A stretch of 47,161 bases of DNA from a virus. The notes beneath the pieces are model-generated. The model had not been told where the DNA came from. It saw only the letters and a program-made list of their open reading frames with translations, and ran no database searches. Every line of letters begins with the position of its first letter. Position 1 is the stretch's first letter. A program made the translations under genes and the position numbers. Location: the IMG/VR virus record IMGVR_UViG_3300046060_000019, positions 1-47,161 of that record. One strand, 5' to 3'. Positions 484 to 39,688 of the stretch are shown here, in pieces.

Positions 484-494
484 GTGACGCTGGA
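484..494 (-). promoter_or_regulatory. Class A promoter-proximal motif (GTCCAGCGTCACG variant)
   Basis: Plus strand reads gtgacgctgga. A 35-nt spacer leads to the ATG at 448. The leader is about 40 nt identical to the one at 39642..39690. Confidence 0.6.
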
Positions 495-507
495 CCACAG
501 ACCCCCT

Positions 508-867
508 TCAGACAGGGACGTGCTGGGCGGCGACCACCACGACGAACGCCACCGTGACGCCCAACACGGTGTATGCCGGTTCCCGAAGCGCGTCGCGGAA
601 GTGAAGCGTGTCGGCGTACTTCCGAAGGCCACGGCCCACCGAGTACGCCGCGCCCAGACCCACGAACGGAAGCCCAGCAACGAGCGCCTGAAGTTCAGCG
701 GGGGCGACCGACATGAACACGTCTGGGGCGATTACCGCGAGAACGCCGACGGCCAAGGCGTGCCACTCGGCGGGGTTGGACAGGAACGATACGTTCCAAA
801 CAGTCGCGTCGTCGCGTCCCGTCAGAAAGTGCGACCACTTCACGGGACCTTCGGAACCGTGGGTCAT
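508..867 (-). CDS. Small membrane protein (119 aa)
   Basis: C-terminal part of track ORF 508..1119, starting at the internal ATG 867 (MTHGSEGPVKW...). It has two or three hydrophobic segments. The upstream part of the track ORF runs over the hairpin cluster and a class A motif. Confidence 0.55.
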   Translation of the reverse strand: MTHGSEGPVKWSHFLTGRDDATVWNVSFLSNPAEWHALAVGVLAVIAPDVFMSVAPAELQALVAGLPFVGLGAAYSVGRGLRKYADTLHFRDALREPAYTVLGVTVAFVVVVAAQHVPV

Positions 868-902
868 AGCGGTGACACTCGGTCCGGGCGGCAAAACACG
901 GC

Positions 903-913
903 GTGACGCTGGA
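903..913 (-). promoter_or_regulatory. Class A promoter-proximal motif TTCCAGCGTCACG
   Basis: gtgacgctgga on the plus strand, with a 35-nt spacer to the ATG at 867. Confidence 0.6.
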
Positions 914-939
914 ACGGACAAGGACGGTGTACGGTACGC

Positions 940-975
940 GGGGATAGACTTATTACGTATGCTAAAAAACAGTAC
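940..975 (-). terminator. AT-rich patch with a T6 run (minus strand); a candidate archaeal terminator
   Basis: The minus strand reads CTGTTTTTTAGCATACGTAATAAGTC (T6 = plus 964..969), directly after the hairpin cluster and before the class A motif. Oligo-T is the usual archaeal termination signal. Confidence 0.4.
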
Positions 976-1002
976 CCGCACGCCGCTTATCGCCGTGCGT
1001 CG

Positions 1003-1135
1003 GCCCGAAGGGGCGACGCCGAAGGGGTTCACCCCCAAAGGGGGTGAATCCCCGAAGGGGGCCTTTGGCCCCCTTCGGGCGTCGTCCCGTAGGGCGACGC
1101 CACTCGGGGGGCCGTCCACGACGGCCCCATACCGT
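1003..1135. repeat. Cluster of four consecutive strong hairpins plus CCGAAGGGG iterons
   Basis: Hairpins at 1024..1053 (13 bp with one bulge), 1052..1078 (12 bp, TTT loop), 1078..1101 (10 bp) and 1108..1128 (9 bp). CCGAAGGGG occurs at 1005, 1019 and 1052, with an inverted copy at 1070. Confidence 0.8.
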
Positions 1136-1190
1136 TGACACTCGTTCTGGATAGGGCGGGAGGGAAAAACAAACAGCGGTGTTGTGTGGT

Positions 1191-1691: not shown

Positions 1692-1855
1692 GTTCTCGGG
1701 GCGTCTGACATTAGAACAGCGCCCATGGCCGTTTCTAACGCTGGTTTCCGCCGGGTATTCGTTAACAGCCCAGTGGAAGTGAACAGCGTCAGCCCATGTT
1801 CACCGCGTCACAAAGGCCCCATGGTCAGGGGTGAACGAGAAGACCGTCGTTCAGT

Positions 1856-5778: not shown

Positions 5779-5988
5779 TCACTCGGCGTTGTCACCCCGT
5801 TCGTCCAGCGCGTCTTTTACCGTCGTTCGGTCCCTGAAGTCCACTTCCGCGTCGCGGACTTCCGACAGGTGACCGTCGGCGTCCCCGGCCTGAATCGCGT
5901 TTACGACGGCTTCATAGCCGTCGTCGTCACGAACGAATCCGTCGGGGTCGAATTCATCCGGGGCGTCCCCGCCCTCGTTCAGTTTCCC
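5779..5988 (-). CDS. Start-less acidic ORF reachable by a -1 frameshift from 5979..6326 (about 66-codon extension)
   Basis: Slippery heptamer G GGA AAC (plus 5982..5988) abuts the 0-frame stop. The -1 frame reads KLNEGGDAPDEFDPDGFVRDDDGYEAV...DERGDNAE* and has no ATG, GTG or TTG near its 5' end. Confidence 0.5.
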   Translation of the reverse strand, partial: GKLNEGGDAPDEFDPDGFVRDDDGYEAVVNAIQAGDADGHLSEVRDAEVDFRDRTTVKDALDERGDNAE

Positions 5989-6326
5989 GAACCACCCCCG
6001 TCGTCGCCGTCGCCGTTCGTGTCGCTGTCGGTGGTGGCGTCCTCGCCGTTCGTGTCGCTGTCGGTGGTGGCGTCCTCGTCGTCCGTGTCGCCCACCAGTT
6101 CGTCCCGCGTCGGGCCGGACTGGTTGGTGTTGATAGCGGAAGACGGCTGTTCAGTCTCGCCGTCGTGGTCCTCGGGCGGGTCTTCCCACCCACGGGTCCG
6201 GTAGAACCGTTCCAGTTCCGCCGGAACCTCGTACATGCCGGGACCCGCATAGCGGGTGTCCGACTGGTAGTCCACGAATTCGGCGTCGTTCGGCCACTGA
6301 AGCGTGACCGTGGATTTTCCAGACAT
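5979..6326 (-). CDS. Acidic repeat protein downstream of the capsid gene (115 aa)
   Basis: Track ORF containing the duplicated 11-aa unit GEDATTDSDTN. Confidence 0.65.
   Translation of the reverse strand: MSGKSTVTLQWPNDAEFVDYQSDTRYAGPGMYEVPAELERFYRTRGWEDPPEDHDGETEQPSSAINTNQSGPTRDELVGDTDDEDATTDSDTNGEDATTDSDTNGDGDDGGGSGN
6011..6076. repeat. Perfect 33-bp tandem duplication (2 copies)
   Basis: cgccgttcgtgtcgctgtcggtggtggcgtcct occurs at 6011..6043 and again at 6044..6076. Confidence 0.85.
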
Positions 6327-6329
6327 GTT

Positions 6330-7445
6330 TTAAATATCCTGAATGACGACCCAGTTCTCGGGACGAACCATTTCCACGCCGAATTCTTGTGCGACCTTGT
6401 ACCACGTCTGGGGCGGGTCGTTTTCCCACCACGACTGGGTGATGAAGCCCATGGACGTATCCACGGACCAACTTCCAGTCGGTTCCTCGCCGCCGCGCTG
6501 AACGATGTTGTCCAGCCGGTCGGTCAGCACGGGCATACCCGCCGCTCGCGGGTCACCAGCGGTCCCGAACAGGATGTTCCGGCGCTGGGTCCCGGCGGAC
6601 ACGTCGTAGGGTTCCAGAATGTTGTCCTTCACCGCGTTCTCCCGGTCTTCCACGACGTTGTCGTTTTCGTCTATCGGCTCGCCGTTGTCGTTGGTCCTGA
6701 CAACCTTGGTGTAAACCTTCACCATGTTGTCAATCGGAAGCACGTTCGCCACCTGTTCTTCCGTAAGACCCTGAACCGCGACGCCGCTGAAGCGGTCTTC
6801 AAGGTCGTTGTTCTTTTTCAGGTCGGTGGCGACCGACGGCGGGGCGTAGGTGGTCGGCGCTGGAAGTTCGTCCAGCATGGTCCCCTCGGTGTCCACCAGT
6901 TCGTCGGCGTCGTGGAACACGTTCTGGGGGGTCGCGTTGGCGGTGTCGCTGAACGCCGTCGCGGGCTTCAGAACGTGGGTGGAATCCAGTGCGGGGTGGG
7001 CCGTCTGACCGTCTTGCCCAATGAACCCGTCCACGTCGTCCAGCCCGCGCCACCCGGCGACTTCCCGAGTGATACGAAGTTCCCGCTGAAGTTGGTCCAC
7101 ACAGTAGTTGAAGGCGTTCAGCAGGTCTTCGTCCGTGTTCACCTCGAAGTCCGCGCCGCGCTCGGGGCTTCGCTTCTTCTTGAAGGTGTCCACTGAATAC
7201 TGGTCTTTCGACAGGTCTTCAGTTTTCCCCGTCGGCGCTTCCGCCGACAGCGCCGTCTGTCGCATGGGAAGCGCCCCGCTGTTCATCCGGTAGTACGTTT
7301 CCTCGCTGTCCGTTAGGACAATCGTGGGGAGAATGTCACTGATGGACGGCCCACGGGTGTCCAGTTGGGACAGGTCCCGAACGATTTGATTCCGAACCGT
7401 TTCGGGCGACAGTTCGTCTGCCCGACTAAGTGTTAGTTCAGCCAT
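6330..7445 (-). CDS. Major capsid protein candidate (HK97 fold, lambda gpE-like arrangement)
   Basis: 371-aa ORF directly after the protease/scaffold and decoration-like genes. Size and position are typical for a capsid protein. Confidence 0.65.
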   Translation of the reverse strand: MAELTLSRADELSPETVRNQIVRDLSQLDTRGPSISDILPTIVLTDSEETYYRMNSGALPMRQTALSAEAPTGKTEDLSKDQYSVDTFKKKRSPERGADFEVNTDEDLLNAFNYCVDQLQRELRITREVAGWRGLDDVDGFIGQDGQTAHPALDSTHVLKPATAFSDTANATPQNVFHDADELVDTEGTMLDELPAPTTYAPPSVATDLKKNNDLEDRFSGVAVQGLTEEQVANVLPIDNMVKVYTKVVRTNDNGEPIDENDNVVEDRENAVKDNILEPYDVSAGTQRRNILFGTAGDPRAAGMPVLTDRLDNIVQRGGEEPTGSWSVDTSMGFITQSWWENDPPQTWYKVAQEFGVEMVRPENWVVIQDI

Positions 7446-7985: not shown

Positions 7986-9788
7986 TTACTGTTCAGCCTC
8001 GCCCCTGGCGGTGGCGGCCACGAACGCCCCAGCCGGGTTGTCCTCGGTTACGAAGTCCGCCGGGTCTTCGTCGTGCTTTTCAGCCATGAATTCCGCCGCG
8101 CTGTCGTGGTCAGACGAACGGAATTCCATTTTTTCGTCCAGCGTCATGGCGGACTCGGCGACCGCTTCCACGTCGTCGTCGCCCGCGCCGGACGACCCGC
8201 CGCCACCCGACACGCCGCCGTCAGCGCCGTCGCCGGAGGCGTGGGCCTTCCCGTACTCGGAACGCGCCTGTTCGCTTTCCAGAATTTCGGTCGCTCGCTG
8301 TCCGTCCATGGCCTGAAGTTCCGCCGGGGACTTCCCCGTCAGTTCTTCAGCCCGGTCGTCCACGGAATCGGCGTCCGTGTCGTACTTCGGAAGCGACGCT
8401 TCTTTCGCCGCCACGTCTTCCCGAAGGTCAGCGGTGTGTTCGTCAACGAGCGCCTGAACGCCGTCTTCAGCATTCAGGTCAACGTCGTGGAAGTCGGCCA
8501 ACGCTTCGGCGGCGTCGGCCTGTTCCGCGACGACTTCCGCTCGTTCTGTCAGTTCGTCCAGTTCAGCGTCTTCGTCCACGTCCACCCCAGCGGCGGACGC
8601 CACGGCCTGAAGGCGCTGAATCCGGTCGTCTTTGTGTTCGACCACTTCAGCCGCGCCTTCCAGCACGGCGTCGGGGTCGTCCACATCTTGAAGTTGATTT
8701 AGGTCCTTCATGTCTCGTTCTCGCGCTTGTTTCGCCATGGCCCGAAGGGACGACGTGTACGCCGTCGCCGGAGCCGTCGGGGACTGTTCAGCCAACGAAG
8801 CCGCTGTCTGAAGCGGCGGCATGGTCCCCGGCCCCGCGCCGGACACCGCCCCCGTCTTCACGAAGTCCACCTGTCGCACTGTCTCGGCGGTGACCACCAG
8901 CCGTTCCTTCCCGCCGGATTCTACCGTCTTCGGCCGACCGTCGTCGTTCGTATGAAGACGAAGGTCACCAACGATAGAATAGTCCTTAGCGGCCAACTGA
9001 CCGTTCTGGGCGGCGTCCACCGCCTTGTCGTTGGTCAGTTCGTAATCGGTCATAACGAGCGACCGCCCGTCTTCCGACAGGGCGAAGTCAGTCGCCTGAC
9101 CGACCGTAAGAAGGTCCAGTTCCGACGCAACGGGAACAGTGTCTTCGTGAAGGCTGTTCCCGTGGTCCATCCCGAGTTTCGGCGGCTCGCCCGCCTGAAT
9201 CCCGTCCGTCACGTTCTGGAACGTTCGCGGGATGGAATCTTCAGGAACGTGTACCGGCGTCGGTTGTCCGTTCAGATACAGCGTGTGGTCACCAGCCGCC
9301 CAGACAACGCCCGTCAGGTCGTCCACGCCGTCTGGGTTTGCCCCAGACACGGACGCCCTGAACGGGCTGTCAGCGCCGTCAGACGCCACCGCCGCCATAG
9401 CGGAAGCGTCGGCCACGTTGTCCCCGCTAATTTCCCACGACGACAGTGAATCTTCTCGGTGACCAACCATCCGGTTGGAACCTTCCGATTTAGGGACCCA
9501 CGCGGGGCCTTCGTCGTCGGGGTTCTCCCGATACACCATGATTAGGTACGCCGGGTTCTCGGTGGTCCCTTCCACGGTGAAGTCACCGTCAATCCGGTCG
9601 CTGAATGACCCGTCAGTGGTCACGTCAACCACGCGCCCCCGAACAGGGCCGCCGCTGGACCCCCAGCGGACGGTGTCACCGACCGAGAATTGGCTACCTT
9701 CAGCGACAAGGGACTGAAGGGCGTCCTCGACACCCTCGGCTGTCCCGCCCAGCGTCAGGCGTTCGACGTTCTGTATTGTTAGGTTCAC
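7986..9788 (-). CDS. Prohead protease (Mu gpI-like) fused to an acidic coiled-coil scaffold domain
   Basis: The central region (...PKLGMDHGNSLHE...KDYSIVGDLRL...VDFVKTGAVSG) resembles Mu-I type proteases. The C-terminal half is Ala/Glu/Asp-rich and helical. The start is GTG. Confidence 0.5.
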   Translation of the reverse strand: MNLTIQNVERLTLGGTAEGVEDALQSLVAEGSQFSVGDTVRWGSSGGPVRGRVVDVTTDGSFSDRIDGDFTVEGTTENPAYLIMVYRENPDDEGPAWVPKSEGSNRMVGHREDSLSSWEISGDNVADASAMAAVASDGADSPFRASVSGANPDGVDDLTGVVWAAGDHTLYLNGQPTPVHVPEDSIPRTFQNVTDGIQAGEPPKLGMDHGNSLHEDTVPVASELDLLTVGQATDFALSEDGRSLVMTDYELTNDKAVDAAQNGQLAAKDYSIVGDLRLHTNDDGRPKTVESGGKERLVVTAETVRQVDFVKTGAVSGAGPGTMPPLQTAASLAEQSPTAPATAYTSSLRAMAKQARERDMKDLNQLQDVDDPDAVLEGAAEVVEHKDDRIQRLQAVASAAGVDVDEDAELDELTERAEVVAEQADAAEALADFHDVDLNAEDGVQALVDEHTADLREDVAAKEASLPKYDTDADSVDDRAEELTGKSPAELQAMDGQRATEILESEQARSEYGKAHASGDGADGGVSGGGGSSGAGDDDVEAVAESAMTLDEKMEFRSSDHDSAAEFMAEKHDEDPADFVTEDNPAGAFVAATARGEAEQ

Positions 9789-9837
9789 GTTCAGTCCCCC
9801 GCACTAACCGATAGACAAACAGCCCCCATATACGACC

Positions 9838-9848
9838 GTGACGCTGGA
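9838..9848 (-). promoter_or_regulatory. Class A promoter-proximal motif
   Basis: gtgacgctgga, followed on the minus strand by GGTCGTATATGG (TATA-like). It lies 49 nt from the GTG at 9788. Confidence 0.55.
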
Positions 9849-9889
9849 AGTAATAGAACGTTAAAACGGCGTATGGGGCTGATAACTGA

Positions 9890-11496: not shown

Positions 11497-11557
11497 ATCC
11501 TAACCACTGATTAAGAGACACTTAAGACATGCGTAAGACATGTGAAGGCTATCTGAA
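11497..11557 (-). promoter_or_regulatory. AT-rich intergenic promoter-like region
   Basis: The minus strand reads CTGAATAATTCAG (palindrome), then ATGTCTTA x2, then CTTAAG at -30..-25 from the ATG at 11496. Confidence 0.4.
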
Positions 11558-16981: not shown

Positions 16982-17016
16982 ATCCGACAGAATCAGCCAC
17001 GTCCGCTTAACCGAAC

Positions 17017-17027
17017 GTGACGCTGGA
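17017..17027 (-). promoter_or_regulatory. Class A promoter-proximal motif
   Basis: gtgacgctgga, with a 35-nt spacer to the portal ATG at 16981. Confidence 0.6.
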
Positions 17028-17036
17028 ACAGTCAGC

Positions 17037-20822: not shown

Positions 20823-20857
20823 GTCAGACACTCGTATGCTGAACGACTTATCCCACC

Positions 20858-21738: not shown

Positions 21739-21749
21739 GTGACGCTGGA
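21739..21749 (-). promoter_or_regulatory. Class A promoter-proximal motif
   Basis: gtgacgctgga lies 5 nt after the stop at 21754. It is followed by GGTCGTTCAATAG and only a 25-codon ORF (21696..21619) before the non-coding region. Confidence 0.55.
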
Positions 21750-21753
21750 AGTT

Positions 21754-25983: not shown

Positions 25984-26412
25984 TCAGGCGTCCGCCCAGT
26001 CCCGAAGGTCACCGTGGCGTCGCCGGGGTTCGTCGCGCCCGTCCATGTATGGCCTGAAGTCAGCGCCCCAGACTTTCGGAACGCGAAGCCACTGTTCGCC
26101 CCGCGCCTTCCGGTCGTCGCGGATTGTCCCTTCCCGGTCCCGTTCGGTGAAGGTACTCGGGTCGAACACCAGAAAGTCTTCGCGGACCCGGATTAACAGC
26201 ATGGCGTCGGCGTCCCGCGCTCGTTCCACCAGTTTTCGCATGGCGCTAATGTCGCCGTTCTTGTGGGTTTGGCTGACGGCGCTGACATAGAAGACTTCGC
26301 CGGGCTGGGGTTCGACCTTGAAGGCGTACTTCCCTTCACCGTCTTCATACCACGCTGTAATCCGCGTTCGTCGGGACTTGAACCACTCGGCGGTGTCTCG
26401 TAACAGCCCCAC
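25984..26412 (-). CDS. Hypothetical protein (142 aa)
   Basis: Track ORF with a GTG start. I recognised no motif. Confidence 0.5.
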   Translation of the reverse strand: MGLLRDTAEWFKSRRTRITAWYEDGEGKYAFKVEPQPGEVFYVSAVSQTHKNGDISAMRKLVERARDADAMLLIRVREDFLVFDPSTFTERDREGTIRDDRKARGEQWLRVPKVWGADFRPYMDGRDEPRRRHGDLRDWADA

Positions 26413-26595: not shown

Positions 26596-26693
26596 GGTCG
26601 CCCCGCTCGTTCGTGCGGACGGTCAGTTTCGGTGAACGCTTGTCATACATGTGTGTGCGTGTCAGGCGTGTATCTCGGTGTTCAAGGGCTACC

Positions 26694-26704
26694 GTGACGC
26701 TGGA
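26694..26704 (-). promoter_or_regulatory. Class A promoter-proximal motif
   Basis: gtgacgctgga lies 2 nt after the stop at 26706. The next ATGs are at 26650 (19-codon ORF) and 26595. Confidence 0.5.
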
Positions 26705-26705
26705 A

Positions 26706-26998: not shown

Positions 26999-27787
26999 TT
27001 ACAGGTCGTCACTGGGGTCGAAGTCGCCCAGTTCGCCGTCGTCTAAGTCGGCCACGTCGTCCGGGCCGCCGTCTTCCGGCGGGTCCGGCGGGTCGTCGTG
27101 GTCGCCTTCACTTTCACTGTCCGCTTTCGGGCCGTCCGTACCCTGAAAGTCAGTCGAAGCGCCGCCGCCGAGTTCTTCCACGGCCTCGGCGTCCGTTAGT
27201 TGCATATGCGGCCCGTCGCTGTCGTCCAGTGTCACGTCGTCGTGGAAGTCGTCAGCGAACGATTCTGACGCTTCCCGTGCGGAACGGATAACGTCGGTGT
27301 TGATTCCCGCCCGTGTCGCCGCCTGTTCCAGCGCGTCTTCGTCCAGCGGCGTGTCGGCGTCGGTTAGGGCTATGTCGAACAGATATTCCAGTGTCTCGGC
27401 TTGAACCGCTTCGCGGGGGGACCACTGGGGGCTGTCGTCCACCGGGTCCGCCCGGTCATGGCGAAGCGGAATCAGCCGGGATTCCGGTACTGGATAGCGG
27501 TTCTTCGGGTCGTTCAGTCCGTCCCGATTCACCGGATTGTCCGTTAGGTACACGCATTGATACATGGTGTCGTCGGGCGTCGCACCTACCAGCGCGTTCT
27601 TGAAGTATTCCAGTTGGCCTTTCTCGCCGCCGGCCCGTCGGTCGTCGTACTCGGCGACGCTGTCGGCTAATCGCTGGACCACCAGCACGCGAGCGAAGCC
27701 TTTCTGTCCAACGTCGAACGCGACGCCGGGACAGCGAACGGTCAGGTCGAACGATTCCGCTTCGTCGTTTCGGGTGTGTTCCGGCAT
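26999..27787 (-). CDS. Hypothetical protein with a hyper-acidic C-terminal tail (262 aa); weak ssDNA-binding candidate
   Basis: Track ORF trimmed to the ATG at 27787. It ends ...DDVADLDDGELGDFDPSDDL, reminiscent of the acidic tails of SSB or T7 gp2.5. Confidence 0.55.
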   Translation of the reverse strand: MPEHTRNDEAESFDLTVRCPGVAFDVGQKGFARVLVVQRLADSVAEYDDRRAGGEKGQLEYFKNALVGATPDDTMYQCVYLTDNPVNRDGLNDPKNRYPVPESRLIPLRHDRADPVDDSPQWSPREAVQAETLEYLFDIALTDADTPLDEDALEQAATRAGINTDVIRSAREASESFADDFHDDVTLDDSDGPHMQLTDAEAVEELGGGASTDFQGTDGPKADSESEGDHDDPPDPPEDGGPDDVADLDDGELGDFDPSDDL

Positions 27788-27803: not shown

Positions 27804-27990
27804 GACACCGTTCCGGTCCCGGTGTCGGGGACACCGCCCCGCCGACGGCGACGTGGTCCTGATTACTGGGGTAATCACGGACAACCACCAGCGTGGTTGC
27901 CTCGGTGAACAACTTTCGTTGTTTCACGTCGCCGTCCGGCGGTTTAGCGGTCTATAAACTGTATGGCGCTATACGAATTCGGGACCCGGA
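27804..27990 (-). promoter_or_regulatory. Structured leader or intergenic region with four hairpins and TATA-like boxes
   Basis: Hairpins at 27804..27826 (class B type GACACCG/CGGTGTC), 27860..27877, 27882..27899 and 27907..27924. TATA-like TTTATAG and GTATAGC lie at about 27951..27976. Confidence 0.55.
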
Positions 27991-28312: not shown

Positions 28313-29251
28313 CTATTGGTCGGTGATTCTCGGCGCGAGCATGAACACGCCACGGATTCCATATTCCTCGTTGAAGAACTGGAACACCGCCGGGAACTCG
28401 TCGCCCCAGCGAACAGTGACGTTGTCCATACGAGCGGACTTCAGCGCCTTCGCTATATTACGAAGGTAGTCCATGCTGAACAGGGACGACTGACCACGGA
28501 TTTTTTCGGTCAGCCCGTCGCCGTCGTAATCCTGTTCGTACCCGTTCAGGAACCGGACGGTGTCGGTAACAGTGTCGCCCTCGGCATGGAACTGAAACCC
28601 GTCGTCGTTCTCGGGGTCCGACCGGACCGCGACGTGGTCAGCCGTGGACTTCAGTTGTCCAACAGCGTCCTTCATGGCCTTTGCACTTTCTGGGTGTCCG
28701 ACATTCCGAAGGTTCAGCCCCGGAAGGTCCGGTTCCTGTCGGATACTGTCGGGGTCTATCAGGTTCATTAGGCTGACGCGCTGGGTGGCCTGACTGGACC
28801 GCGTGATTACTGTTTCCAGCCGTCGAAGGTCGTCCCCGTACCGCACTGAAACGGGGTCGCCGTCGTCGTCCACGCCGGACCCAGCCATACGAGCGTATCG
28901 GACGTTTTTCTGAAGACGGCCCAGATTCACGCCCAGCGTTTCACCAGCGCCGTCCACGTCCCACGACCCGAAGCCGCCGCCCTTGGCGGGAAGTGTCACG
29001 TCCACGAAGGCGACGCTCGCCGGGTCCACCGCCCGAATATGTAGCCCGTCCACTATGCTGTCGTCGCCCCACTCGGCTGTTTCTCGTTCCCCGACAACCA
29101 GTTTCGCTTCGTCCACCAGCGCGTAAGGGAGTCGAAGGAACAGCCGTAGCGGGGTCGCCCGAACGTCGAAGGTCAGCGTCGGGTCGGCCACGCGGTTCAG
29201 CGGGTTCGGTTCGTCGTCTGTCGGTTTCTCGGTTTGGTTTGTCGTCGCCAT
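28313..29251 (-). CDS. pcna: PCNA-like sliding clamp
   Basis: 312 aa with a two-domain PCNA-style pattern (LHIRAVDPASVAFVDV..., LGVNLGRLQK, SLMNLIDPDSI, C-terminal FMLAPRI). A class A motif lies 35 nt upstream. Confidence 0.75.
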   Translation of the reverse strand: MATTNQTEKPTDDEPNPLNRVADPTLTFDVRATPLRLFLRLPYALVDEAKLVVGERETAEWGDDSIVDGLHIRAVDPASVAFVDVTLPAKGGGFGSWDVDGAGETLGVNLGRLQKNVRYARMAGSGVDDDGDPVSVRYGDDLRRLETVITRSSQATQRVSLMNLIDPDSIRQEPDLPGLNLRNVGHPESAKAMKDAVGQLKSTADHVAVRSDPENDDGFQFHAEGDTVTDTVRFLNGYEQDYDGDGLTEKIRGQSSLFSMDYLRNIAKALKSARMDNVTVRWGDEFPAVFQFFNEEYGIRGVFMLAPRITDQ

Positions 29252-29286
29252 GTGTGCTTACAGAATCAGGATTGTGATTATCTCGC

Positions 29287-29297
29287 GTGACGCTGGA
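29287..29297 (-). promoter_or_regulatory. Class A promoter-proximal motif
   Basis: gtgacgctgga. On the minus strand ATAAT follows at -30..-26 from the ATG at 29251. Confidence 0.65.
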
Positions 29298-29308
29298 ACC
29301 GCCCAGCG

Positions 29309-30053: not shown

Positions 30054-30341
30054 TCACATGTCCCCCATGATTGTGACGACGGTCAGGAACCAGACGACGG
30101 CGGCCACGACGCCAAAGGCCACCAGTGAAACGAGCGCCCGGACGTACACCGCCCAGTCGCCCAGCGGAATCGGCGGGGCGAACAGGAATACGGCCACGGC
30201 CCCGAGAAGGCCCCCGACGACGGCGAGGGTCCCGCCGTACTTCGCCCGCGTGAACCCGACGGACGGGTCCGACATGTCGTCGCTGTCGTCGTCCAGCAGA
30301 GACGGGCGGTCCGTGCTGGGGAAGTCGCTGTCTCGGTCCAT
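30054..30341 (-). CDS. Membrane protein (95 aa, 2-3 TM segments)
   Basis: GTLAVVGGLLGAVAVFLFAPPI and ALVSLVAFGVVAAVVWFLTVV. Confidence 0.55.
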   Translation of the reverse strand: MDRDSDFPSTDRPSLLDDDSDDMSDPSVGFTRAKYGGTLAVVGGLLGAVAVFLFAPPIPLGDWAVYVRALVSLVAFGVVAAVVWFLTVVTIMGDM

Positions 30342-30817
30342 TAGGCGTCACCCCCGTTATCGGGGAACAGTGCGTTCAGCCCGCGGTCCCCGCCGTCGGT
30401 CGCCACGCCGTCCAGTCCGTCCACGGCGTTGGCCCACTCGTTCAGGTATTCCCGAATCTCGCGGCGGCCCCGCTGGGTTAGCCCGTACTCGTTGGTCCGG
30501 CGGTCCAGTTCGGACTTCGCTACCAGCCCCATGTCGGACAGCGTGTTCATGTTCGGATACAGTCGTCCGTGGTGGACTTCGCTGTATCCGGCTTCGTCTT
30601 CCAGCCATTCCAGCACTTCCAGCCCGTTCGGGCCGCGTTCGTCGGTGGTCAGTGCGGCTATCGCTCGTAGTTGGTCCCGTTGGAACCCGGTCAGGTCGTA
30701 CATGTTCGTTGTTAGTTCCTGAATTCGTTCGTTCAGTTGTTCGCGCTGTTCATCCGGCGTGTCAGGGTCGTCCCGTCCTTCTTTCAGTTGGTCCAGTATC
30801 CGTGAAGCGTGGGTCAT
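30341..30817 (-). CDS. PadR-like winged-helix transcription regulator
   Basis: GRLYPNMNTLSDMGLVAKSELDRRTNEYGLTQRG matches the PadR-type recognition helix and wing pattern. Confidence 0.65.
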   Translation of the reverse strand: MTHASRILDQLKEGRDDPDTPDEQREQLNERIQELTTNMYDLTGFQRDQLRAIAALTTDERGPNGLEVLEWLEDEAGYSEVHHGRLYPNMNTLSDMGLVAKSELDRRTNEYGLTQRGRREIREYLNEWANAVDGLDGVATDGGDRGLNALFPDNGGDA

Positions 30818-31040: not shown

Positions 31041-32507
31041 TCAGGTGTCCCCCCCGTTGACGGCGTCCAGAATCGCTTCGTTCAGTTCGTCCCCGCTGGG
31101 CTGGGCGGACACTGTCGCGTCCACGTCAGCGGCCAACGCTTTCCGCTCGTTGTAATCTGACGGTAGGGCGTCGGCGTCCAGTTCGTTCAGCGTGTCGGCG
31201 TCCACCACGTCGCCCCAGTCGTGGGGAAGAACGTCGTCCACGGGCGTGGCGGCTTCCACGTCGCGCCCGTCTTTGTCGCTGGGGACGACCGTCGCGGCGT
31301 CGTCCGGGTCGCTGTCGGCGGGGTCCACCGCCGCCGCTTCCAGACGCTCTATCAGGTCAGCCCGGTTAGGGTTGCCGTCCACGGAAACGTCGGACGCTTC
31401 CGCCAACGAGTGAAGGGCGGTCGTATCCAGTTCTTGAAGCCGTTCCACACGGCTGTCGTTAGCGCCGTCATACGGCGCGTCAGTGGATTCTTCGTCGTCC
31501 GTGGACGCTGGGTCGTACCCGTCGGCGTCGGCGGCCACGTCGCCCACGCTTCCGCCGTGGCCGGGCGTCAGGGTTTCAGCGACTTCGGTTAGGGCGTCGG
31601 TCGTCTTCCGGGCTATCTCGGGGTCGTTTAGCGACCCGTCGAAGTCGTCCAGCCGGTCGTCCACTTCGTCTTCGGGGACGGGTTCGCCCACGTCCACTAT
31701 GTCCAGTTGCCCGGTGTCTTCGTACTGTCGCGCCCACTTCGGAATGTCGTCGTCCGACGGGGCGGTCCAGACGACCCGCGTCAGGTACGAGTACCCGATA
31801 ACGCCGGGGACCGTCTTTACCGGTTTGTCGGCGTCGTCTTCGCCCAGCCGGTTGTCGTCGTCCATGTAGTTGACACGGACGTTCTCGGTCTTGGCGTCGC
31901 CGTCGTCGTCGGTGACGGCCACCTGTTCGCCGTCGTCCTCGGTGGTCACCGGCTGTTCGTACACCCGGAACGCCGTCGGGTGAATCAGGAACACCCGCGT
32001 GTTCATGGGGTTGATAGCGGGCGGCCCCTGTCGCTTCGACACCGGGATTCCCTTCGACAGCCCGAACCGCTGGGATTCCGTGACGAAGTCTTCCGGGTCG
32101 TCGTAGTACGTTTCCCCGACCCACATTAGTAGGTCCTCGGCGTATGCCGTGGTGATAGCGCCCCAGTGGTTCCCGTCTTCGGAGCCGTCCAGCCGGTCCC
32201 ATAGGTCCTGAAGGTCGTCTTCGTTCGGCTGGGTCGTTACGTCGTCACCCAGCGACCGCTGGAACCCCAGTCCGTCGAACTGTTGGTACGAGCGAAGCGT
32301 TCCTTCTTTGTAGGGAATCGGCGGGTCGAACGTCACGAAGGCGGGAATGTCGCCGCCACGGACGGGGTCAGTTCGGATGTACCCTTTTTCTTCTTCCAGA
32401 TAGCCACACCCGCGTTCTGGGTTGGGTAGTAGTTCCCGCCCAGTCTCGGGGTCGGCTTTCGGTTCGTAATCCAGTTGGTCGCCAAAGTTCGGGTTTTGTT
32501 CGGTCAT
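31041..32507 (-). CDS. Large early-region protein of unknown function (488 aa) with a hyper-acidic C-terminal half
   Basis: Track ORF trimmed to the ATG at 32507 (MTEQNPNFGD...). The N-terminal globular part contains RGCGYLEEEKGYIR and FDPPIPYKEG. I saw no Walker motif. Confidence 0.6.
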   Translation of the reverse strand: MTEQNPNFGDQLDYEPKADPETGRELLPNPERGCGYLEEEKGYIRTDPVRGGDIPAFVTFDPPIPYKEGTLRSYQQFDGLGFQRSLGDDVTTQPNEDDLQDLWDRLDGSEDGNHWGAITTAYAEDLLMWVGETYYDDPEDFVTESQRFGLSKGIPVSKRQGPPAINPMNTRVFLIHPTAFRVYEQPVTTEDDGEQVAVTDDDGDAKTENVRVNYMDDDNRLGEDDADKPVKTVPGVIGYSYLTRVVWTAPSDDDIPKWARQYEDTGQLDIVDVGEPVPEDEVDDRLDDFDGSLNDPEIARKTTDALTEVAETLTPGHGGSVGDVAADADGYDPASTDDEESTDAPYDGANDSRVERLQELDTTALHSLAEASDVSVDGNPNRADLIERLEAAAVDPADSDPDDAATVVPSDKDGRDVEAATPVDDVLPHDWGDVVDADTLNELDADALPSDYNERKALAADVDATVSAQPSGDELNEAILDAVNGGDT

Positions 32508-32515
32508 GGCCGGTA

Positions 32516-32824
32516 TTAGTTGTCGTCGGTCGCTTGTATCTCGTTCCGCCGGACAGGCTCGGCGTCGTCCAGCGGATACGCCTTGAACTTCCGCTGGGCG
32601 GCTTTGTCGGCGTCCGGGTCCAGCGCGTCTTCGGCTAACCCCGCACGCACTTCCCATGAACCACCGTATCGGTCACCCAGTTCGGTGACCGTGTCAACGG
32701 CCCGCCGGACGGCTTCGGGCGGGTCCCTCGCGGGGACCGCCGTCGCCACGACGGATTCCATGGGGCCTTGGTCGGCGTTCGGGGAGTGGGTGACCGTCAC
32801 CGTCCAGTCGCGGCTGTCAGGCAT
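32516..32824 (-). CDS. Hypothetical protein (102 aa)
   Basis: Track ORF starting MPDSRD; its start overlaps the upstream stop (ATGCCTGA). Confidence 0.55.
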   Translation of the reverse strand: MPDSRDWTVTVTHSPNADQGPMESVVATAVPARDPPEAVRRAVDTVTELGDRYGGSWEVRAGLAEDALDPDADKAAQRKFKAYPLDDAEPVRRNEIQATDDN

Positions 32825-32940: not shown

Positions 32941-32995
32941 CTGTCAGGCAACACCGTTTACACCCGGCGTCGAGGTGACCGCCCCGTCACTGAAC
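32941..32995 (-). promoter_or_regulatory. Class B conserved leader (GTGACGGGGCGGT box plus ACGCCG...CGGTGT hairpin)
   Basis: The minus strand reads GTGACGGGGCGGTCACCTCGACGCCGGGTGTAAACGGTGTTGCCTGACAGAACT then ATG. Confidence 0.55.
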
Positions 32996-33026
32996 AAGAG
33001 CTGTTCAGGGACGGTGTGACGGAAAA

Positions 33027-33200
33027 CGGACAGGGCGGGATTTGAACCCGCGAAGCGACTTCCCCGGCGCTTCCGAAGGACACAAGGACAGTGTTGTCCC
33101 GGCGGGGGTGTCCGCCGGTCCCTCGTACCACGTCCCCGGTTCCGCCGCCAAAGCCCGTTGATGAAAACGGGCCGCCTTGTCCAGACTCGGCCACCTGTCC
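33027..33200 (-). tRNA. Oversized tRNA-like gene (174 nt), possibly an intron-containing class II tRNA
   Basis: Acceptor GGACAGG/CCTGTCC (7 bp, perfect). D-arm GCC-GAGTCTGGACAA-GGC. T-arm GCGGG-TTCAAAT-CCCGC. Discriminator G followed by TTTT. About 90 extra nt carry internal hairpins. Confidence 0.5.
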
Positions 33201-34281: not shown

Positions 34282-34335
34282 CAACACCGTTTGCGCCCGG
34301 TGTCAGGGCGACCGTCCCGCCACGAACGAGCGTGA
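34282..34335 (-). promoter_or_regulatory. Class B conserved leader
   Basis: The minus strand reads TTCACGCTCGTTCGTGGCGGGACGGTCGCCCTGACACCGGGCGCAAACGGTGTTGAACGACCT then ATG. Confidence 0.55.
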
Positions 34336-35530: not shown

Positions 35531-36373
35531 GCCGTTCGTCCAGTGGCCCATGTCGTGACGGTTTGACGGTAGAATGAACTAACGCACGCGACGCTTCCCG
35601 ATTCAGGGCGTTGTCCTTTCGGGAAGCGAACGGCCCAGTCGCCTGTAACAGCGTGAAGGCCATTCCACGACACCGGGTGAAGTTCCGCCTTTCGTGGGCG
35701 TTCCACTTCGACCGGACCCGACGGTCCGCGCTGGGGGTGGCGTCAGTCACCGTGCGGGGGCGCTGTCCCGCGTCGGCGTCGTTTCTCTCGTCGCCGCGTG
35801 GCCCCGTTCGACTGGGGTGTGAACCACGCGGCTGGACTGGTGTCCCCCGTCACCCGCTCGCGCCGAAGCGCGTCGGTACACTGGGGTGTCTCGGGGCGTG
35901 ACGCCCGAAGGAACCAGCGGGACCGCCTGTCGTCGCCCCCGAGTGGTCGAACGGCCCAGCATGGCCGTGGGTCCCGCACTCGGGGGAACCGCCGTGAATT
36001 GTGGCCGCACGGCGGAACGGGGGCGAACAGGTGAACGCTCGTCAGGCAGGGGGCGCGTCAGCGCCCCGATACATGACACCCTTTCGAGAGTAGCCACTTA
36101 TATCTTTCCCAATTGTTCCACTGGGCGTATTAGGGTTAGTCACAAGAGCGGATTACCGGCCCGTTCCACCGACCGGCGTATGACAGGCGAAAGCGGTTAG
36201 GCGGTGAATAATCCGCCGTTCAGCGTCTTAGTAACCTAATAATCAAGTGCCACCGGGCCGTCGAACCCAGTGCGGGCGGCGGCGGTGAACGCTTGTCAGG
36301 CAACACCTTTCGTCCCGTGAACGCGGACGAACTCTTGCCGCCACCCCCAATTCAGAATCAGACAGCGACCGCG
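35531..36373. other. ~840-nt non-coding, highly structured control region (candidate origin and/or large ncRNA)
   Basis: There is no acidic ORF. Tetraloop-capped GC helices lie at 35859..35872, 35593..35627, 36050..36067 and 36200..36217. An 18-mer repeat occurs at 36031 and 36285. An AT-rich core at 36085..36250 carries an ORB-like box. Confidence 0.6.
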
Positions 36374-38098
36374 TCAGACAATCCTGACGTTCTCGTATGT
36401 CTCGCCGTTCTCGGCGGACACATTCACTGTCCCGTCGTCGTTGACCGCCGTGACTTCGCCCACGACCGGGTCAAACCCACCCACGACATTAGAACCGCCG
36501 CTGGTGGCGGAATTTCGGCGCTGGATAATCTGATTCACCGCCGCCTGTCCGATAGATTCCGTGGCCGTCGGACGTTTGGTCCCGAATTCCACGTTCGTCT
36601 TCGCTTCGTCCGGGGCCACCTGATATTCCACTTTCTGAACAGTGAAGGTGTTGTCCGTCACTTTTTGCGGAATCCCGCGGCTGGGGTAATATATTTCAGC
36701 CCGGTCGCCGGGGCGAACGTCCATTATTCCGGCGACTGGGGCGGTTCCGCTGACGCTCGTTCGGTACGCCTTATCAAATACGTCATGGGCGACAGCCAAC
36801 GCCTGATACCAACCCGTAATCTGGGGGTCCGACACACTGGTGGCGCGAAGGTCTATTTCGTCTATGTCGTTGATTCCCCCAGCGAGACTATCCTTCCACT
36901 TCCATGTGTATTTGTCACTGGTATCGGTGGGGAACACCCCTTTTTCATGGGGATTTTCGTAGCCCCACATAGTGTAAACAGACCCGTTATACGCCCATGT
37001 CCAGACATTCACGCCGCCCTGACCGGAAACCTGAACGTAGTTCTTCACGCCGTCTATATTCCGCTTCGCTATCGGTCGGATTACATTCTGACCTTCAGTG
37101 AATGTGTACCGACTGGGTTTGCGGGTCTGTTCCGGGCGAACAACGAGCGTGTCCGTGCTATCCCTGACGAAGTATTCCCACGGCGTCCCCCCGTCCAGCG
37201 ATTGAATATAAGAGATAATACGGTTAAGAAAGTCCCGGGTAGAATAATCCTGTTGGGCGCTGAAGTTCCAGTCGTTCTCTACATAATTGTATATATTAGC
37301 CGATAGCGCCACAGTCGCGGACCCGGTCAGGTCAGGAACGTTCGTGTTGATACTGTTCACTTCCGCCCACAACTGATTCCCACCAGACAGCGCCAAATTC
37401 ACGGCGTTGGTCCCGTAAGCTTCAACAGGGCCGTCACCCGGTGGAAGGTCCAGTGACGCTTTGACAGTGTTTCCGTCAGCGTCCGCCCCGGTTATATCCA
37501 GCGTGTACGTCGCGCCCGTGTTGTTCTCGTAACCGTCAATCCGAAGCTCGGCCTGTTTCCCCCGGTTGTCGTTGACAGTTTCGTGTTGGTCGAAGGTATC
37601 AGAATTTGCGTCGAAGCGTCCGTAGTGGGAAACGGTGACCATTCCGAAGTCGGTTGCTTCCGAGAACAGGCCGTATTCGGCCTTTGCGGCGTCAGCGTCA
37701 TACGAGATACCCCGGATTTTGGACGGTCCCGTGTCCACGACGCCGTCAATAACGTCCCAAATGTTGTCTTCGTTGTACCGCCCCACCACCGTGCTGTCGT
37801 CCAGACGGCCTTCAGGCGTCCGTGCGTCCAGCGTGACGACGGGTTCCGTGTCGTCGTCGTCCACGTCGTCCACGAAGCCGCTGAATACCACGGTGTCGTT
37901 TCCGTCGGTCAGCGTCACGTCTATGTCCGCTTGTTCTTCCAGCGCGTGCGGGCGCTGACTGGTATCCAGTTTGACGGTGACGCTGTTCGGGTTTCCTTGT
38001 TCTCGCGTGTACGTTATTTCAATTACGTCACCAGAAACGTCGCCTTCAGGGCTGACGGTGACAGTCCAGTCAACCGAGTACGCTTGTGTGGCGGACAT
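36374..38098 (-). CDS. Tail tip / baseplate protein candidate (574 aa)
   Basis: It is the last gene of the tail module. The N-terminal pattern (VDWTVTVSPEGDVSGDVIEITY...VVFSGFVDDVD) resembles hub or Tal-type N-domains. Confidence 0.45.
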   Translation of the reverse strand: MSATQAYSVDWTVTVSPEGDVSGDVIEITYTREQGNPNSVTVKLDTSQRPHALEEQADIDVTLTDGNDTVVFSGFVDDVDDDDTEPVVTLDARTPEGRLDDSTVVGRYNEDNIWDVIDGVVDTGPSKIRGISYDADAAKAEYGLFSEATDFGMVTVSHYGRFDANSDTFDQHETVNDNRGKQAELRIDGYENNTGATYTLDITGADADGNTVKASLDLPPGDGPVEAYGTNAVNLALSGGNQLWAEVNSINTNVPDLTGSATVALSANIYNYVENDWNFSAQQDYSTRDFLNRIISYIQSLDGGTPWEYFVRDSTDTLVVRPEQTRKPSRYTFTEGQNVIRPIAKRNIDGVKNYVQVSGQGGVNVWTWAYNGSVYTMWGYENPHEKGVFPTDTSDKYTWKWKDSLAGGINDIDEIDLRATSVSDPQITGWYQALAVAHDVFDKAYRTSVSGTAPVAGIMDVRPGDRAEIYYPSRGIPQKVTDNTFTVQKVEYQVAPDEAKTNVEFGTKRPTATESIGQAAVNQIIQRRNSATSGGSNVVGGFDPVVGEVTAVNDDGTVNVSAENGETYENVRIV

Positions 38099-38121
38099 GG
38101 TGGTTGTTCAGTCCCCAGCGT

Positions 38122-38910
38122 TCAGGTCATACTAAGCGTCCACGTCACCTGAAGTTCCTGACTGGACGTTTTATCTATCGTTGGCGACACTACTGTTCGG
38201 TTCAGCATATCGCCGTCCACGGCGGCGGTGGGCGGAACGTTGAACAGTCCGGCTTCGGCGATACTGACGTTAGCCTGACCCGTTCCGAAAGACCACTGTC
38301 CGGTAATTTCGACGGCGCTTTCGTCACGGGTATAGAACCCGCTGTCAAGCCCGATACGAGTGTCTTCAGCCAACAGGTTAGTTTGGCTATCGCTGACGCT
38401 CGTTCCGTCAGTACCGACGGCCAACCATTCCCACGGATACCCGTAGTAAGATAAGTCAACAGCCACGTTGTCCGTTCCGCTGGTCGGGGCGCTGTCGAAG
38501 TAAAGGACCCCGTCGAAGTAGTTCACGGCGTAATCCGCGGGAACTGATTGTGACGTACCGCCCACGGTCACGTCGGTGACCTCGCGGATAGGGTGATATG
38601 GGTGGGGAATGTCAAACTGGGTCTTTGACCCGTCACCGCTGAAGGTGACTGTTTGACTGTCAGCGATTCCACCAACGTACTGAAGTAAAGCGTTCTCGCC
38701 TTCGTCCACCGTCGTGTTCAGGCTGACACGCCGGTCCACGTCGCCCGTGCGGGCGTCAGTAAGAACGAAGGTGAATTCACCTCGCCATTTGTCGGAACCG
38801 CCCAGCACGTCGTGGAAACCGTTCTGGGCCTGTTCCTGAAGCCGCTTCCGCTTGTTCTGGATTCCGTTCAGTGCGTTCTGAATCGCCGTCGGTGAAAGTT
38901 CTCGTTCCAT
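38122..38910 (-). CDS. Tail fibre / baseplate component (262 aa)
   Basis: Call is by position in the distal tail module. Confidence 0.4.
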   Translation of the reverse strand: MERELSPTAIQNALNGIQNKRKRLQEQAQNGFHDVLGGSDKWRGEFTFVLTDARTGDVDRRVSLNTTVDEGENALLQYVGGIADSQTVTFSGDGSKTQFDIPHPYHPIREVTDVTVGGTSQSVPADYAVNYFDGVLYFDSAPTSGTDNVAVDLSYYGYPWEWLAVGTDGTSVSDSQTNLLAEDTRIGLDSGFYTRDESAVEITGQWSFGTGQANVSIAEAGLFNVPPTAAVDGDMLNRTVVSPTIDKTSSQELQVTWTLSMT

Positions 38911-38915
38911 GATTA

Positions 38916-39641
38916 TTACTTCCCTGTGGCCTGAAACAGAAAGTCCGCCGTTGACCCGGATGAACCGGCATTATTTATTCGCGCTTCCACGGTGAAGCCG
39001 TCCACCGTGACGTTCGTCGTTCGTATCCACGCGAAGGCCACGGACGTGTCAGACAGCGTGTTCAGCGTCGCCACGACGCTATCAGCCTTCCGTGGGTACG
39101 AGTGGTCGAAAGTATGGTCAACCGTAACGACGCCCGTTACGTCCGTGGCAACCGTACTCGTTGTCCCCGTTTTCTGCCCGGTAATGCTTTCGTAAGAGTG
39201 TTCTTCGGAAAACGCGACGTATTTTCGGAAGTCCTCGGTCCCGGTCACCCCGGACCCGTCGGTGGTCACCTCCCATATTTTCATTACGTACTGACCGGAC
39301 GGTGTGGTCCCGTCTGACGTATATTCAATAGCGGCGTTGTCCGTCCTCGCGTCGTCCACCACTATGAAAATCTCGTTCGTCGTTGACCCGTCCAACGTAA
39401 GGGTCGTCGTGGCGTCCGACCGGACAAAGTGGCCGCCGAAGAATCCGTCCCCAGCCGCCACGTCCACGTCGTAACTGGACCCGGACGTGGTAATGTCGAA
39501 ATGGCCGTCGTGGTACGGGGCGACCACGAAGTCAGCCATACGGTCACCGAGCGAGTGTAATAGACGGTGAAGTTCGCTGTCCAGCGCCGATTCTTCGCTG
39601 AACCCCGACGCTGACCCAGTGGGGTGGACGGTGAACGCCAT
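38916..39641 (-). CDS. Tail fibre / baseplate component (241 aa)
   Basis: Track ORF 38916..39653 (TTG start) trimmed to the ATG at 39641, which lies 36 nt after a class A motif. Confidence 0.45.
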   Translation of the reverse strand: MAFTVHPTGSASGFSEESALDSELHRLLHSLGDRMADFVVAPYHDGHFDITTSGSSYDVDVAAGDGFFGGHFVRSDATTTLTLDGSTTNEIFIVVDDARTDNAAIEYTSDGTTPSGQYVMKIWEVTTDGSGVTGTEDFRKYVAFSEEHSYESITGQKTGTTSTVATDVTGVVTVDHTFDHSYPRKADSVVATLNTLSDTSVAFAWIRTTNVTVDGFTVEARINNAGSSGSTADFLFQATGK

Positions 39642-39677
39642 TACGACGGACAAGCCACCTGTTCCCCTTCAACGAGT

Positions 39678-39688
39678 GTGACGCTGGA
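39678..39688 (-). promoter_or_regulatory. Class A promoter-proximal motif (inside the tail module)
   Basis: gtgacgctgga. The downstream leader is nearly identical to the one at 449..494. Confidence 0.6.

Follow-up and report, generated by a model that had tools for sequence, protein, structure and literature searches.

Promoters have been demonstrated in the class I and class II intergenic repeats of halovirus HF2 and of other viruses in the genus Haloferacalesvirus (Russ, Pfeiffer and Dyall-Smith 2021, PMC8707807). These repeats are the closest precedent for the element studied here, a G+C-rich 13-mer, TTCCAGCGTCACG. It is found in a stretch of viral DNA of 47,161 nucleotides (IMG/VR record IMGVR_UViG_3300046060_000019, positions 1 to 47,161; hereafter the window), where it most probably acts as the control element common to the main, mostly late, promoters of the virus. 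The HF2 repeats and the 13-mer are both virus-specific, stand only between genes and are oriented with the genes downstream (PMC8707807). Both are accompanied by a TATA box at the standard haloarchaeal distance, and in both cases sequence and genome position are conserved among related viruses (PMC8707807). In addition, the HF2 class I repeats contain an "alpha" block upstream of the B recognition element (BRE), at the same position as the 13-mer, which was suggested to be a common regulatory motif (PMC8707807). The two elements are nevertheless distinct. The HF2 repeats measure 58 or 29 bp and are A/T-rich, and their conservation includes the TATA box and the initiation region (PMC8707807). 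In our case, invariance is limited to a G+C-rich 11-13-mer upstream of the BRE, and the TATA box and initiator vary. Inspection revealed no likeness of TTCCAGCGTCACG or its flanks to the quoted HF2 motifs, CTAAAGACTTAGAA and TCTTTAAGTC (PMC8707807). The 13-mer also differs in belonging to another family, siphoviruses related to HHTV-1, in spanning a wider divergence (48% identity of the large terminase subunit, TerL) and in having clade-specific variants. Finally, promoter activity was demonstrated for the HF2 repeats (PMC8707807) and is inferred for the 13-mer.

HGTV-1, a haloarchaeal tailed virus, likewise has a repeated promoter-like motif upstream of many of its genes. As cited in PMC3950731, this motif consists of a TATA-like box and an inverted repeat and is compared with the promoter stem-loops of T4. 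The stem-loop described there sets it apart from the 13-mer, whose nine sites share none. No earlier description of the 13-mer was found in the literature searched; the original HHTV-1 genome paper (PMC3737338) may mention the repeat. We place the element with the promoter-associated intergenic repeats of haloarchaeal tailed viruses.

Three groups of better-known regulatory sites can also be compared with the 13-mer. The site of GvpE in the Halobacterium gvp promoters, the Ptr2 sites and the site of TFB-RF1 in Pyrococcus have the same layout: a specific element directly precedes a weak BRE/TATA, its spacing from the TATA box does not vary, and it is expected to act by recruiting TFB or TBP. 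These sites serve host regulons with known activators, whereas here virus operons are concerned, and the likeness is one of layout. The sites of T4 MotA, Mu C and P2 Ogr also are short elements at a fixed place upstream of a weak core promoter and are common to the operons of one temporal class, mainly morphogenesis. They belong to bacterial sigma-70 promoters and not to archaeal TBP/TFB promoters, so the analogy is one of logic only, and no homologous protein of this kind was found here. The stoperators of the cluster A mycobacteriophages (L5, Bxb1) resemble the 13-mer in being asymmetric, 13 bp long, present in many copies in short intergenic gaps and in one orientation. However, stoperators keep no fixed distance from a core promoter, and the immunity repressor of the temperate phage blocks elongation at them. 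The 13-mer, by contrast, is tied in position to a start codon and a TATA-like box, and a search with a TerL profile found no sign of lysogeny.

The minus strand of the window has seven exact copies of TTCCAGCGTCACG and the plus strand none; 0.01 are expected from 100 dinucleotide shuffles. Two further minus-strand copies carry one edge mismatch each (promoters 1 and 9 in Table 1). The 11-mer TCCAGCGTCAC is the invariant core, with nine occurrences in the window, and the motif ranks as the commonest 12-mer of the whole genome. It is short, asymmetric, multi-copy and in a single orientation relative to transcription. A sequence-only reading of the window had listed a conserved 13-mer at nine sites, all intergenic and all in the same orientation. 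Orientation and placement were confirmed: all nine copies are on the minus strand and all are in intergenic DNA, which represents 7.2% of the genome in our gene map. The probability that nine random sites would all be intergenic and on one strand is about 2e-13. The reading was silent on the mismatches of two of the nine copies, and its coordinates, although they designate the right sites, refer to the first base of the 11-mer and are thus shifted by one to the right relative to the 13-mer. With such a low expectation in shuffled sequence and no copy outside intergenic DNA, the 13-mer is not equally frequent in genes or in shuffles. When three mismatches are allowed, 73 matches are found for 25 expected. 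This excess is mostly on the antisense strand inside genes and fits codon-usage repeats of the GTCGTCCAG type. None of the minus-strand copies with two or three mismatches that were inspected is followed by an A/T-rich box. A scan of IMG/VR with TTCCAGCGTCACGNTNG gave single chance matches only, among the matches listed. The one locus with two copies, L040, was discarded as a carrier, as these copies are inside unrelated sequence and have no A/T box.

The window has a G+C content of 60% and all its credible genes are on the minus strand. Bases 1-55 are identical to bases 47107-47161. Thus, the contig is either a circle or a molecule with terminal redundancy, its unit measures 47,106 bp, and the gene with its ATG at 448 spans the circular junction. 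Because a megablast search of 24 kb of the window against GenBank phages gave zero matches, relatives were sought through TerL (17037-18893). This protein is 48% identical to TerL of HHTV-1 (Haloarcula hispanica tailed virus 1, Madisaviridae), the sole related isolate among GenBank phages by this comparison. Protein comparison also revealed synteny with HHTV-1 throughout the structural module, from the gene at the position of the small terminase subunit (terS) to the fibre genes. The level of TerL identity, the lack of a nucleotide match and the structural synteny together point to an uncultured haloarchaeal siphovirus distantly related to HHTV-1. No provirus was found with the TerL profile in 185,579 genomes (one per prokaryotic species), and for this reason no host is assigned to the virus. 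Pfam scans of about two-thirds of the predicted proteins of the window turned up no integrase; an integrase is encoded in one relative, L129. Relatives were gathered via TerL homologues and via one conserved middle gene. The window clade set comprises 7 genomes with TerL 63-86% identical and gives 25 motif sites. The HHTV-1 clade set comprises HHTV-1 and eight metagenomic members.

In haloarchaeal leaderless promoters, the TATA box is centred about 27-28 nt upstream of the start and a WW dinucleotide is found at -10/-11. At the 13-mer sites of the window, the gap between motif and ATG is 34 nt at five positions (483, 902, 17016, 20857 and 29286) and 35 nt at a sixth (39677). Counted to the A of the ATG, this corresponds to the spacer of 35-36 nt that had been noticed at six sites from the sequence alone (five of 35 nt, one of 36 nt). 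The three other gaps are of 41 nt (21738, with no real open reading frame, ORF), 42 nt (26693, with an ORF of 20 codons) and 48 nt (9837, with a GTG start). An A/T-rich heptamer begins 3 nt past the 13-mer at all sites but 26693, where the distance is about 6 nt, as expected from the range of 3-6 nt given previously, and spans -31 to -25 from the ATG. The distance of 3 nt also applies to most sites of the relatives. The TATA-like box at about -30 to -25 and the leaderless layout that the same reading had proposed appear to hold in the window and in the 25 sites of the 7 genomes. In these sites, the A/T fraction is 0.8, 0.7, 1.0 and 1.0 at -29 to -26 (spacer positions 6-9), and it is 1.0 at all four positions in 13 sites of the HHTV-1 clade. 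A moderate enrichment is also observed at -11/-10 in the 25 sites (0.7/0.8, versus 0.3-0.6 at -25 to -12). The boxes are weak variants such as GTTGAAG and GGATAAG, not TTTAWA.

The information content of the same 25 sites is concentrated in the motif. Within the 12-mer TTCCAGCGTCAC, 10 of the 12 positions carry about 2 bits and the other two 1.5-1.8 bits, while the 10 positions upstream of the motif carry 0.1-0.3 bits. No purine-rich BRE is recognisable: the positions between 13-mer and A/T box carry 0.4-0.6 bits, with no A-rich consensus. In the mapped HF2 promoters, the TATA box starts at -26 and the BRE is at -33 to -37 (PMC8707807). The geometry of the window clade agrees with both positions. 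The 13-mer, at -47 to -35, is therefore almost wholly upstream of the BRE, as had been proposed, but its last three bases overlap the expected BRE. In view of the 34-35-nt spacing at six window sites and at most sites of the relatives, transcription would start at or next to the ATG, giving leaderless messengers. The MuF-like gene is preceded by a promoter-like site without a 13-mer (gap 11497-11557) that has the same 24 nt from heptamer to ATG. The geometry is therefore that of the core promoter, and the 13-mer comes in addition. Another gap (27949-27961) contains a canonical TTTATAG box, also present in L140. Because other gaps carry different signals, the 13-mer marks one promoter class among several.

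Table 1. Sites of the 13-mer and the putative non-coding unit in the window (coordinates of the window; the gene or unit that follows each site is given in the last column)
Feature	Position	Strand	13-mer	A/T-rich box	Start codon	Gene or unit
Promoter 1	446-495	minus	483-495, GTCCAGCGTCACG (one mismatch)	GTTGAAG 473-479	ATG 448	Orthologue of HHTV-1 gp33; tail-assembly-chaperone position, upstream of the tape measure
Promoter 2	865-914	minus	902-914	TGTTTTG 892-898	ATG 867	508-867, 119 aa
Promoter 3	9786-9849	minus	9837-9849	GTATATG 9827-9833	GTG 9788 (48-nt spacer)	600 aa, orthologue of HHTV-1 gp19; leads the head-to-tail operon, which includes the major capsid protein (6330-7445)
Promoter 4	16979-17028	minus	17016-17028, 8 nt past the TerL stop	GGTTAAG 17006-17012	ATG 16981	Portal position, orthologue of HHTV-1 gp12
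Promoter 5	20820-20869	minus	20857-20869	GGATAAG 20847-20853	ATG 20822	terS position, orthologue of HHTV-1 gp1; leads the packaging operon with the RHH gene and TerL
Promoter 6	21704-21750	minus	21738-21750	GTTCAAT 21728-21734		Ahead of the non-coding unit
Promoter 7	26648-26705	minus	26693-26705, abutting the stop of the upstream gene	CTTGAAC about 26680-26686 (shifted)	ATG 26650 (20 codons); next ATG 26595	Leads 14 small genes, down to 21754
Promoter 8	29249-29298	minus	29286-29298	GATAATC 29276-29282	ATG 29251	PCNA-like gene
Promoter 9	39639-39689	minus	39677-39689, TTCCAGCGTCACA (one mismatch)	GTTGAAG 39667-39673	ATG 39641	Orthologue of HHTV-1 gp38, tail-fibre module
Non-coding transcription unit (putative)	21041-21703	minus				About 660 nt, between two 13-mer promoters
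Hairpin and T-run, GCCCCACCGGGaataacacGCCCGGCGGGGCCTTTT	21041-21076	minus				Conserved

Promoters 1 and 9 are 91% identical across 47 nt (448-494 versus 39642-39688), from the 13-mer through the start codon. This likeness may reflect either a promoter duplication or a tight co-regulation of the two tail operons.

Comparison with the window clade shows which copies are retained. The 12-mer is kept before the non-coding region, before terS and after TerL in L128, L129, L130, L131 and L141, in which the flanks have diverged. The copy after TerL is also kept in L126 and L125, and that before terS in L126. These three are the most widely kept copies. The copy of the PCNA gene is absent from L128 and L140, and that at 26693 is found in L140 and L141, not in L128 or L131. 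The conserved role of the element therefore concerns the morphogenesis operons and the RNA unit. The division of the genome into at least nine units that the sequence-only reading had put forward is thus retained in the relatives for the RNA and morphogenesis units, but for the PCNA and 26693 copies in some of them only. L126 shows that the orientation of the motif tracks that of the genes. In L126 and L127, two outward-facing copies stand 22 nt apart and each points to its own gene. One of them is 34 nt from the ATG of a gene on the opposite strand to its neighbours; the other is 41 nt from the start of its gene.

Variants of the motif are found in both clades. L125 (TerL identity of 68%) and L131 were assembled from one sample, ERR11420198. 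L125 has TTCCACCGTCACG twice and TTCCACTGTCACC once, so that the same position is altered at all three sites, two of which keep the usual spacing. L131 retains TTCCAGCGTCACC. In the HHTV-1 clade, the sites read (G)AATCCAGCG[T/G]GATG then GTTTATG, with 34-35 nt to the start codon at most of them. The variant of this clade, AATCCAGCGTGATG followed by GTTTATG, has the same spacing as in the window. In HHTV-1 itself, sites precede gp1 (terS), gp12 (portal), gp19, gp33 (tail-chaperone) and gp38, which are the orthologues of five of the nine motif-headed genes of the window; a site also precedes gp10. The element is therefore not specific to the window virus, as had been supposed, since it extends to the metagenomic relatives and to the HHTV-1 clade. 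Its identification as a promoter element, on the other hand, is supported by the geometry, by an orientation that follows the genes and by the orthologous placement in HHTV-1. We consider it highly probable that the element is promoter-associated.

In solved archaeal complexes, the contacts made by TFB and TBP do not extend beyond the TATA box and about 6-7 bp on its upstream side. A separate factor is favoured because the invariant bases of the motif reach -46, past these contacts, and because the BRE position is variable. Archaeal factors whose sites adjoin the BRE on its upstream side are usually activators that work by recruitment, GvpE, Ptr2 and TFB-RF1 being examples, and this favours a middle/late activator site. 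We propose that the 13-mer is the upstream element of one archaeal promoter class in a family of haloarchaeal siphoviruses that includes the HHTV-1 (Madisaviridae) clade. In this class, TCCAGCGTCAC is located at about -46 to -36, followed by 3-5 variable bases at the BRE, a weak GTTnAAG or GTTTATG box at -31 to -25 and A/T at -11/-10. Such promoters would lead the packaging, portal, head-tail, tail-chaperone/tape-measure and fibre operons as well as a non-coding RNA of about 660 nt. In the window virus, two further targets would be the PCNA gene and a set of small middle genes. A sequence-specific factor, encoded by the virus or by the host, would sit beside TFB and turn on otherwise weak promoters as a middle/late activator. 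As a whole explanation, a separate factor that binds upstream of the BRE and switches these promoters on seems to us reasonably probable. Taken alone, activation as the direction of regulation is about an even call. A more ambitious version, in which the element and an activator made early by the virus form a family-wide middle/late switch of the morphogenesis operons and a tRNA-like non-coding RNA, is tentative and, in our opinion, rather doubtful. Co-evolution of the site and its reader would explain the clade variants TTCCAGCGTCACG, TTCCACCGTCACG and AATCCAGCGTGATG. To our knowledge, no system made of a late-gene activator and its upstream site has been defined for an archaeal head-tailed virus.

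Several observations weigh against an activator bound at the 13-mer, and part of them concern the identity of the binding protein, for which no candidate emerged. The window encodes three DNA-binding candidates detected with Pfam: a ribbon-helix-helix (RHH) protein (19848-20030, E=6e-9), a PadR-like protein (30341-30817, E=1e-11) and a weak match to HTH_11 (1191-1655). Searches with Pfam, a dedicated RHH profile and phmmer found no homologue of these RHH, PadR and helix-turn-helix (HTH) proteins in HHTV-1, and none of them is therefore an obvious common reader of the motif. The RHH protein was rejected in this role, as a hidden Markov model built from six orthologues matches nothing in HHTV-1 or in the other loci of its clade. 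In addition, the RHH gene is missing between terS and TerL in L126, despite an identical motif. PadR and HTH_11 were not supported either, HHTV-1 having no homologue of either. Seven non-structural proteins are common to the window and HHTV-1, and no recognisable DNA-binding domain was found in these seven. Two conserved non-structural proteins were modelled, with no DNA-binding regulator as a result. The first (25984-26412, minus strand, 142 aa) is the most conserved and least acidic of the seven. It is 57-89% identical in 17 metagenomic homologues, is kept in all clades and is nearly neutral in charge, against the very acidic background of the proteome. The best PDB matches of its AlphaFold model (pLDDT 82) are Hjc/RecU Holliday-junction resolvases, with a TM score of about 0.5, and its HHTV-1 orthologue is gp64, where the adjoining gene is annotated as a Holliday junction resolvase. 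This protein was discarded as a candidate transcription factor, the predicted fold being that of an Hjc/RecU-like nuclease. The model of the other (26999-27787) was unusable (pLDDT 49). PDB sequence searches with 26999-27787 and 31041-32657 gave no matches.

The remaining points bear on the mode of action. The overlap of the last three bases with the expected BRE would suit a repressor blocking TFB equally well. In HF2, mutation of the "alpha" motif left basal promoter activity unchanged (PMC8707807), and the 13-mer may therefore be regulatory rather than necessary. Moreover, one copy in L141 does not have the position expected of a simple leaderless promoter of the gene that follows. At positions 1-43 of L141, two copies stand back to back in a perfect palindrome, GACGCTGGAA-G-TTCCAGCGTC, which is inside the 3' end of the upstream ORF, with 11 nt left to the start codon of a PadR-family gene. 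This arrangement suggests autoregulation by the PadR-family protein in the clade of the window.

Such a palindrome resembles the operator of an autoregulatory dimer and fits a model, which we regard as rather unlikely, in which a PadR-like or RHH-type protein of the virus binds the 13-mer and blocks access of TFB to the adjacent BRE/TATA. The repressor would keep the morphogenesis promoters shut in the early phase of infection, or else in a carrier or lysogenic state. For this, it would make use of the overlap between the 3' end of the motif and the BRE position, and both the PadR (E=1e-11) and the RHH (E=6e-9) proteins are available in the window. In L140, a degenerate copy, TTTCAGCGTCACA, is also found about 85 nt upstream of the PadR gene. 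Stoperators, which bind a repressor, share with the motif a length of 13 bp, asymmetry, intergenic location and a single orientation, and L129 has an integrase. However, HHTV-1 has the motif family and no detectable PadR or RHH, and dispersed single half-sites are poor targets for dimeric proteins of these two families. Most of the invariant bases are upstream of the BRE, where archaeal activators bind. The lack of an integrase in the Pfam scans (about two-thirds of the window proteins) and of a provirus in the TerL search (185,579 species genomes) may also count against a repressor. The motif could alternatively be an extended or atypical BRE read directly by a TFB or TBP paralogue of the host with no extra factor, the virus channelling its transcription through one host initiation-factor variant. 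It is established that haloarchaea have multiple such paralogues. The motif adjoins the TATA-like box and covers the BRE with its 3' end, and no transcription factor common to all motif-bearing viruses was found. We nevertheless think this improbable, as TFB is known to contact only about 6-7 bp upstream of the TATA box whereas the invariant bases reach about 16 bp upstream, and as the bases next to the TATA box are precisely the variable ones. The different variants of L125 and L131 within one sample would also be somewhat easier to account for if each virus encoded its own reader.

A signal acting in the upstream transcript, at its 3' end (terminator, processing or structure), or a recombination module of the PeSL type would explain why several copies come directly after a stop codon and why promoters 1 and 9 form a 47-nt duplicate, as expected for mobile promoter cassettes. 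It would leave unexplained the fixed distances to the ATG and to the A/T box, and for the outward-facing pair of L126 there is no gene upstream that could be terminated. T-runs that might act as terminators occur at 969, 1169 and 21044, apart from the motif, which contains none. The folding z-scores are between -0.6 and +1.0 at eight sites and -2.8 at one, with no common pairing partner. The RNA-structure reading was rejected because the nine folded sites have no common structure, and we hold any origin of the motif in such a signal or module to be very improbable. As to a separate factor bound upstream of the BRE, the motif would be read either by an unrecognised protein proper to each clade or by a protein of the host. 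A reader encoded by the virus is weakly favoured by the concerted changes proper to each clade and by the presence of two variants in one sample.

The unit between promoters 6 and 5 was predicted to be non-coding, and this proved correct. No conserved ORF is found in 21041-21703, and single-base indels relative to L130 break the small ORFs. The homologous regions (L128 7882-8510, L129 1529-2615, L130 388-1200, L131 6578-7484 and L141 9050-9801) contain no called genes in L128, L129 and L131, and L141 aligns through. In L130, a single ORF is called, on the minus strand, and is regarded as spurious. The hairpin followed by a T-run (Table 1) is conserved and is likely the 3' end of the unit. A conserved block, ACCGTCCCGTCACG, is found at 21093-21106. 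The unit also contains two T-arm-like GGTTCAAnTCC modules, at about 21451 and 21231. In L129, the corresponding place is occupied by a genuine tRNA-Gly(GCC). Rfam and standard ARAGORN revealed no family and no standard tRNA in the unit; weak tRNA-like calls appear at the window modules only when ARAGORN is run with long introns allowed. The unit may give rise to processed tRNA-like RNAs or represent a former attP site.

Another tRNA-like gene is located at 33027-33200 (minus strand). Its acceptor, D and T arms are intact, with an insert of about 100 nt at the anticodon/variable region, and it is followed by TTTT. The Rfam tRNA model gives 34.6 bits (gathering threshold 29) with permissive filters; standard ARAGORN and default Rfam missed it. 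The overlapping ORF 32958-33194 is probably spurious.

A second family of intergenic repeats, CGGGGCGGTnnCCnnGACnCCGGGnnnnAACGGTGTY with a short hairpin, occurs on the minus strand at 27804-27841, 32950-32986 and 34283-34320. They precede early-region genes without a 13-mer, with 10-25 nt left to the start codon. L140 and L141 have such a repeat as well, ahead of their homologue of 26999-27787. The family could represent an operator or an RNA element of the 5' leader. Two exact short repeats are found twice each in gaps of the early region (minus strand): GACAAGCGTTCACCG at 26630-26644 and 36283-36297, and GGTGTTGCCTGACA at 32942-32955 and 36294-36307. One of these copies is just downstream of promoter 7, and related TGTTCAC words occur in other gaps. 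An inverted repeat, GTGAACA-N11-TGTTCAC (1779-1804, minus strand), is found in the gap of 200 nt that precedes the HTH_11-like gene (1191-1655) and has the appearance of an operator for a dimeric regulator.

Upstream of promoter 2, the region 915-1190 (minus strand) is gene-free over 276 nt. It contains three successive G+C-rich hairpins (1078-1101, 1057-1073 and 1024-1053) flanked by T5 (1169) and T6 (969) runs, then an A/T-rich patch, and may be a terminator cluster, a replication origin or a packaging site. The gene 5979-6326 contains, at 6005-6074, a perfect or near-perfect tandem repeat of a 33-nt unit. Finally, an ORF at 46746-47042 (minus strand), between the gene at the tail-chaperone position and the tape measure, encodes 98 residues with a pI of 12 and a charge of +35. 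In an acidic proteome, this may indicate a wrong frame or gene call, for example a frameshifted extension of the chaperone.

Temporal control of transcription is almost unexplored in archaeal tailed viruses, and the role of the upstream block was left open in HF2. Here, a sharply defined short element marks the operon starts of a whole lineage, with natural variants that have changed in concert. As the lineage has a cultured member, HHTV-1, growing on Haloarcula hispanica, the question of the reader is directly testable. The motif can also be used to annotate operon boundaries and start codons in uncultured relatives, and it flags a non-coding RNA unit where gene callers place spurious ORFs.

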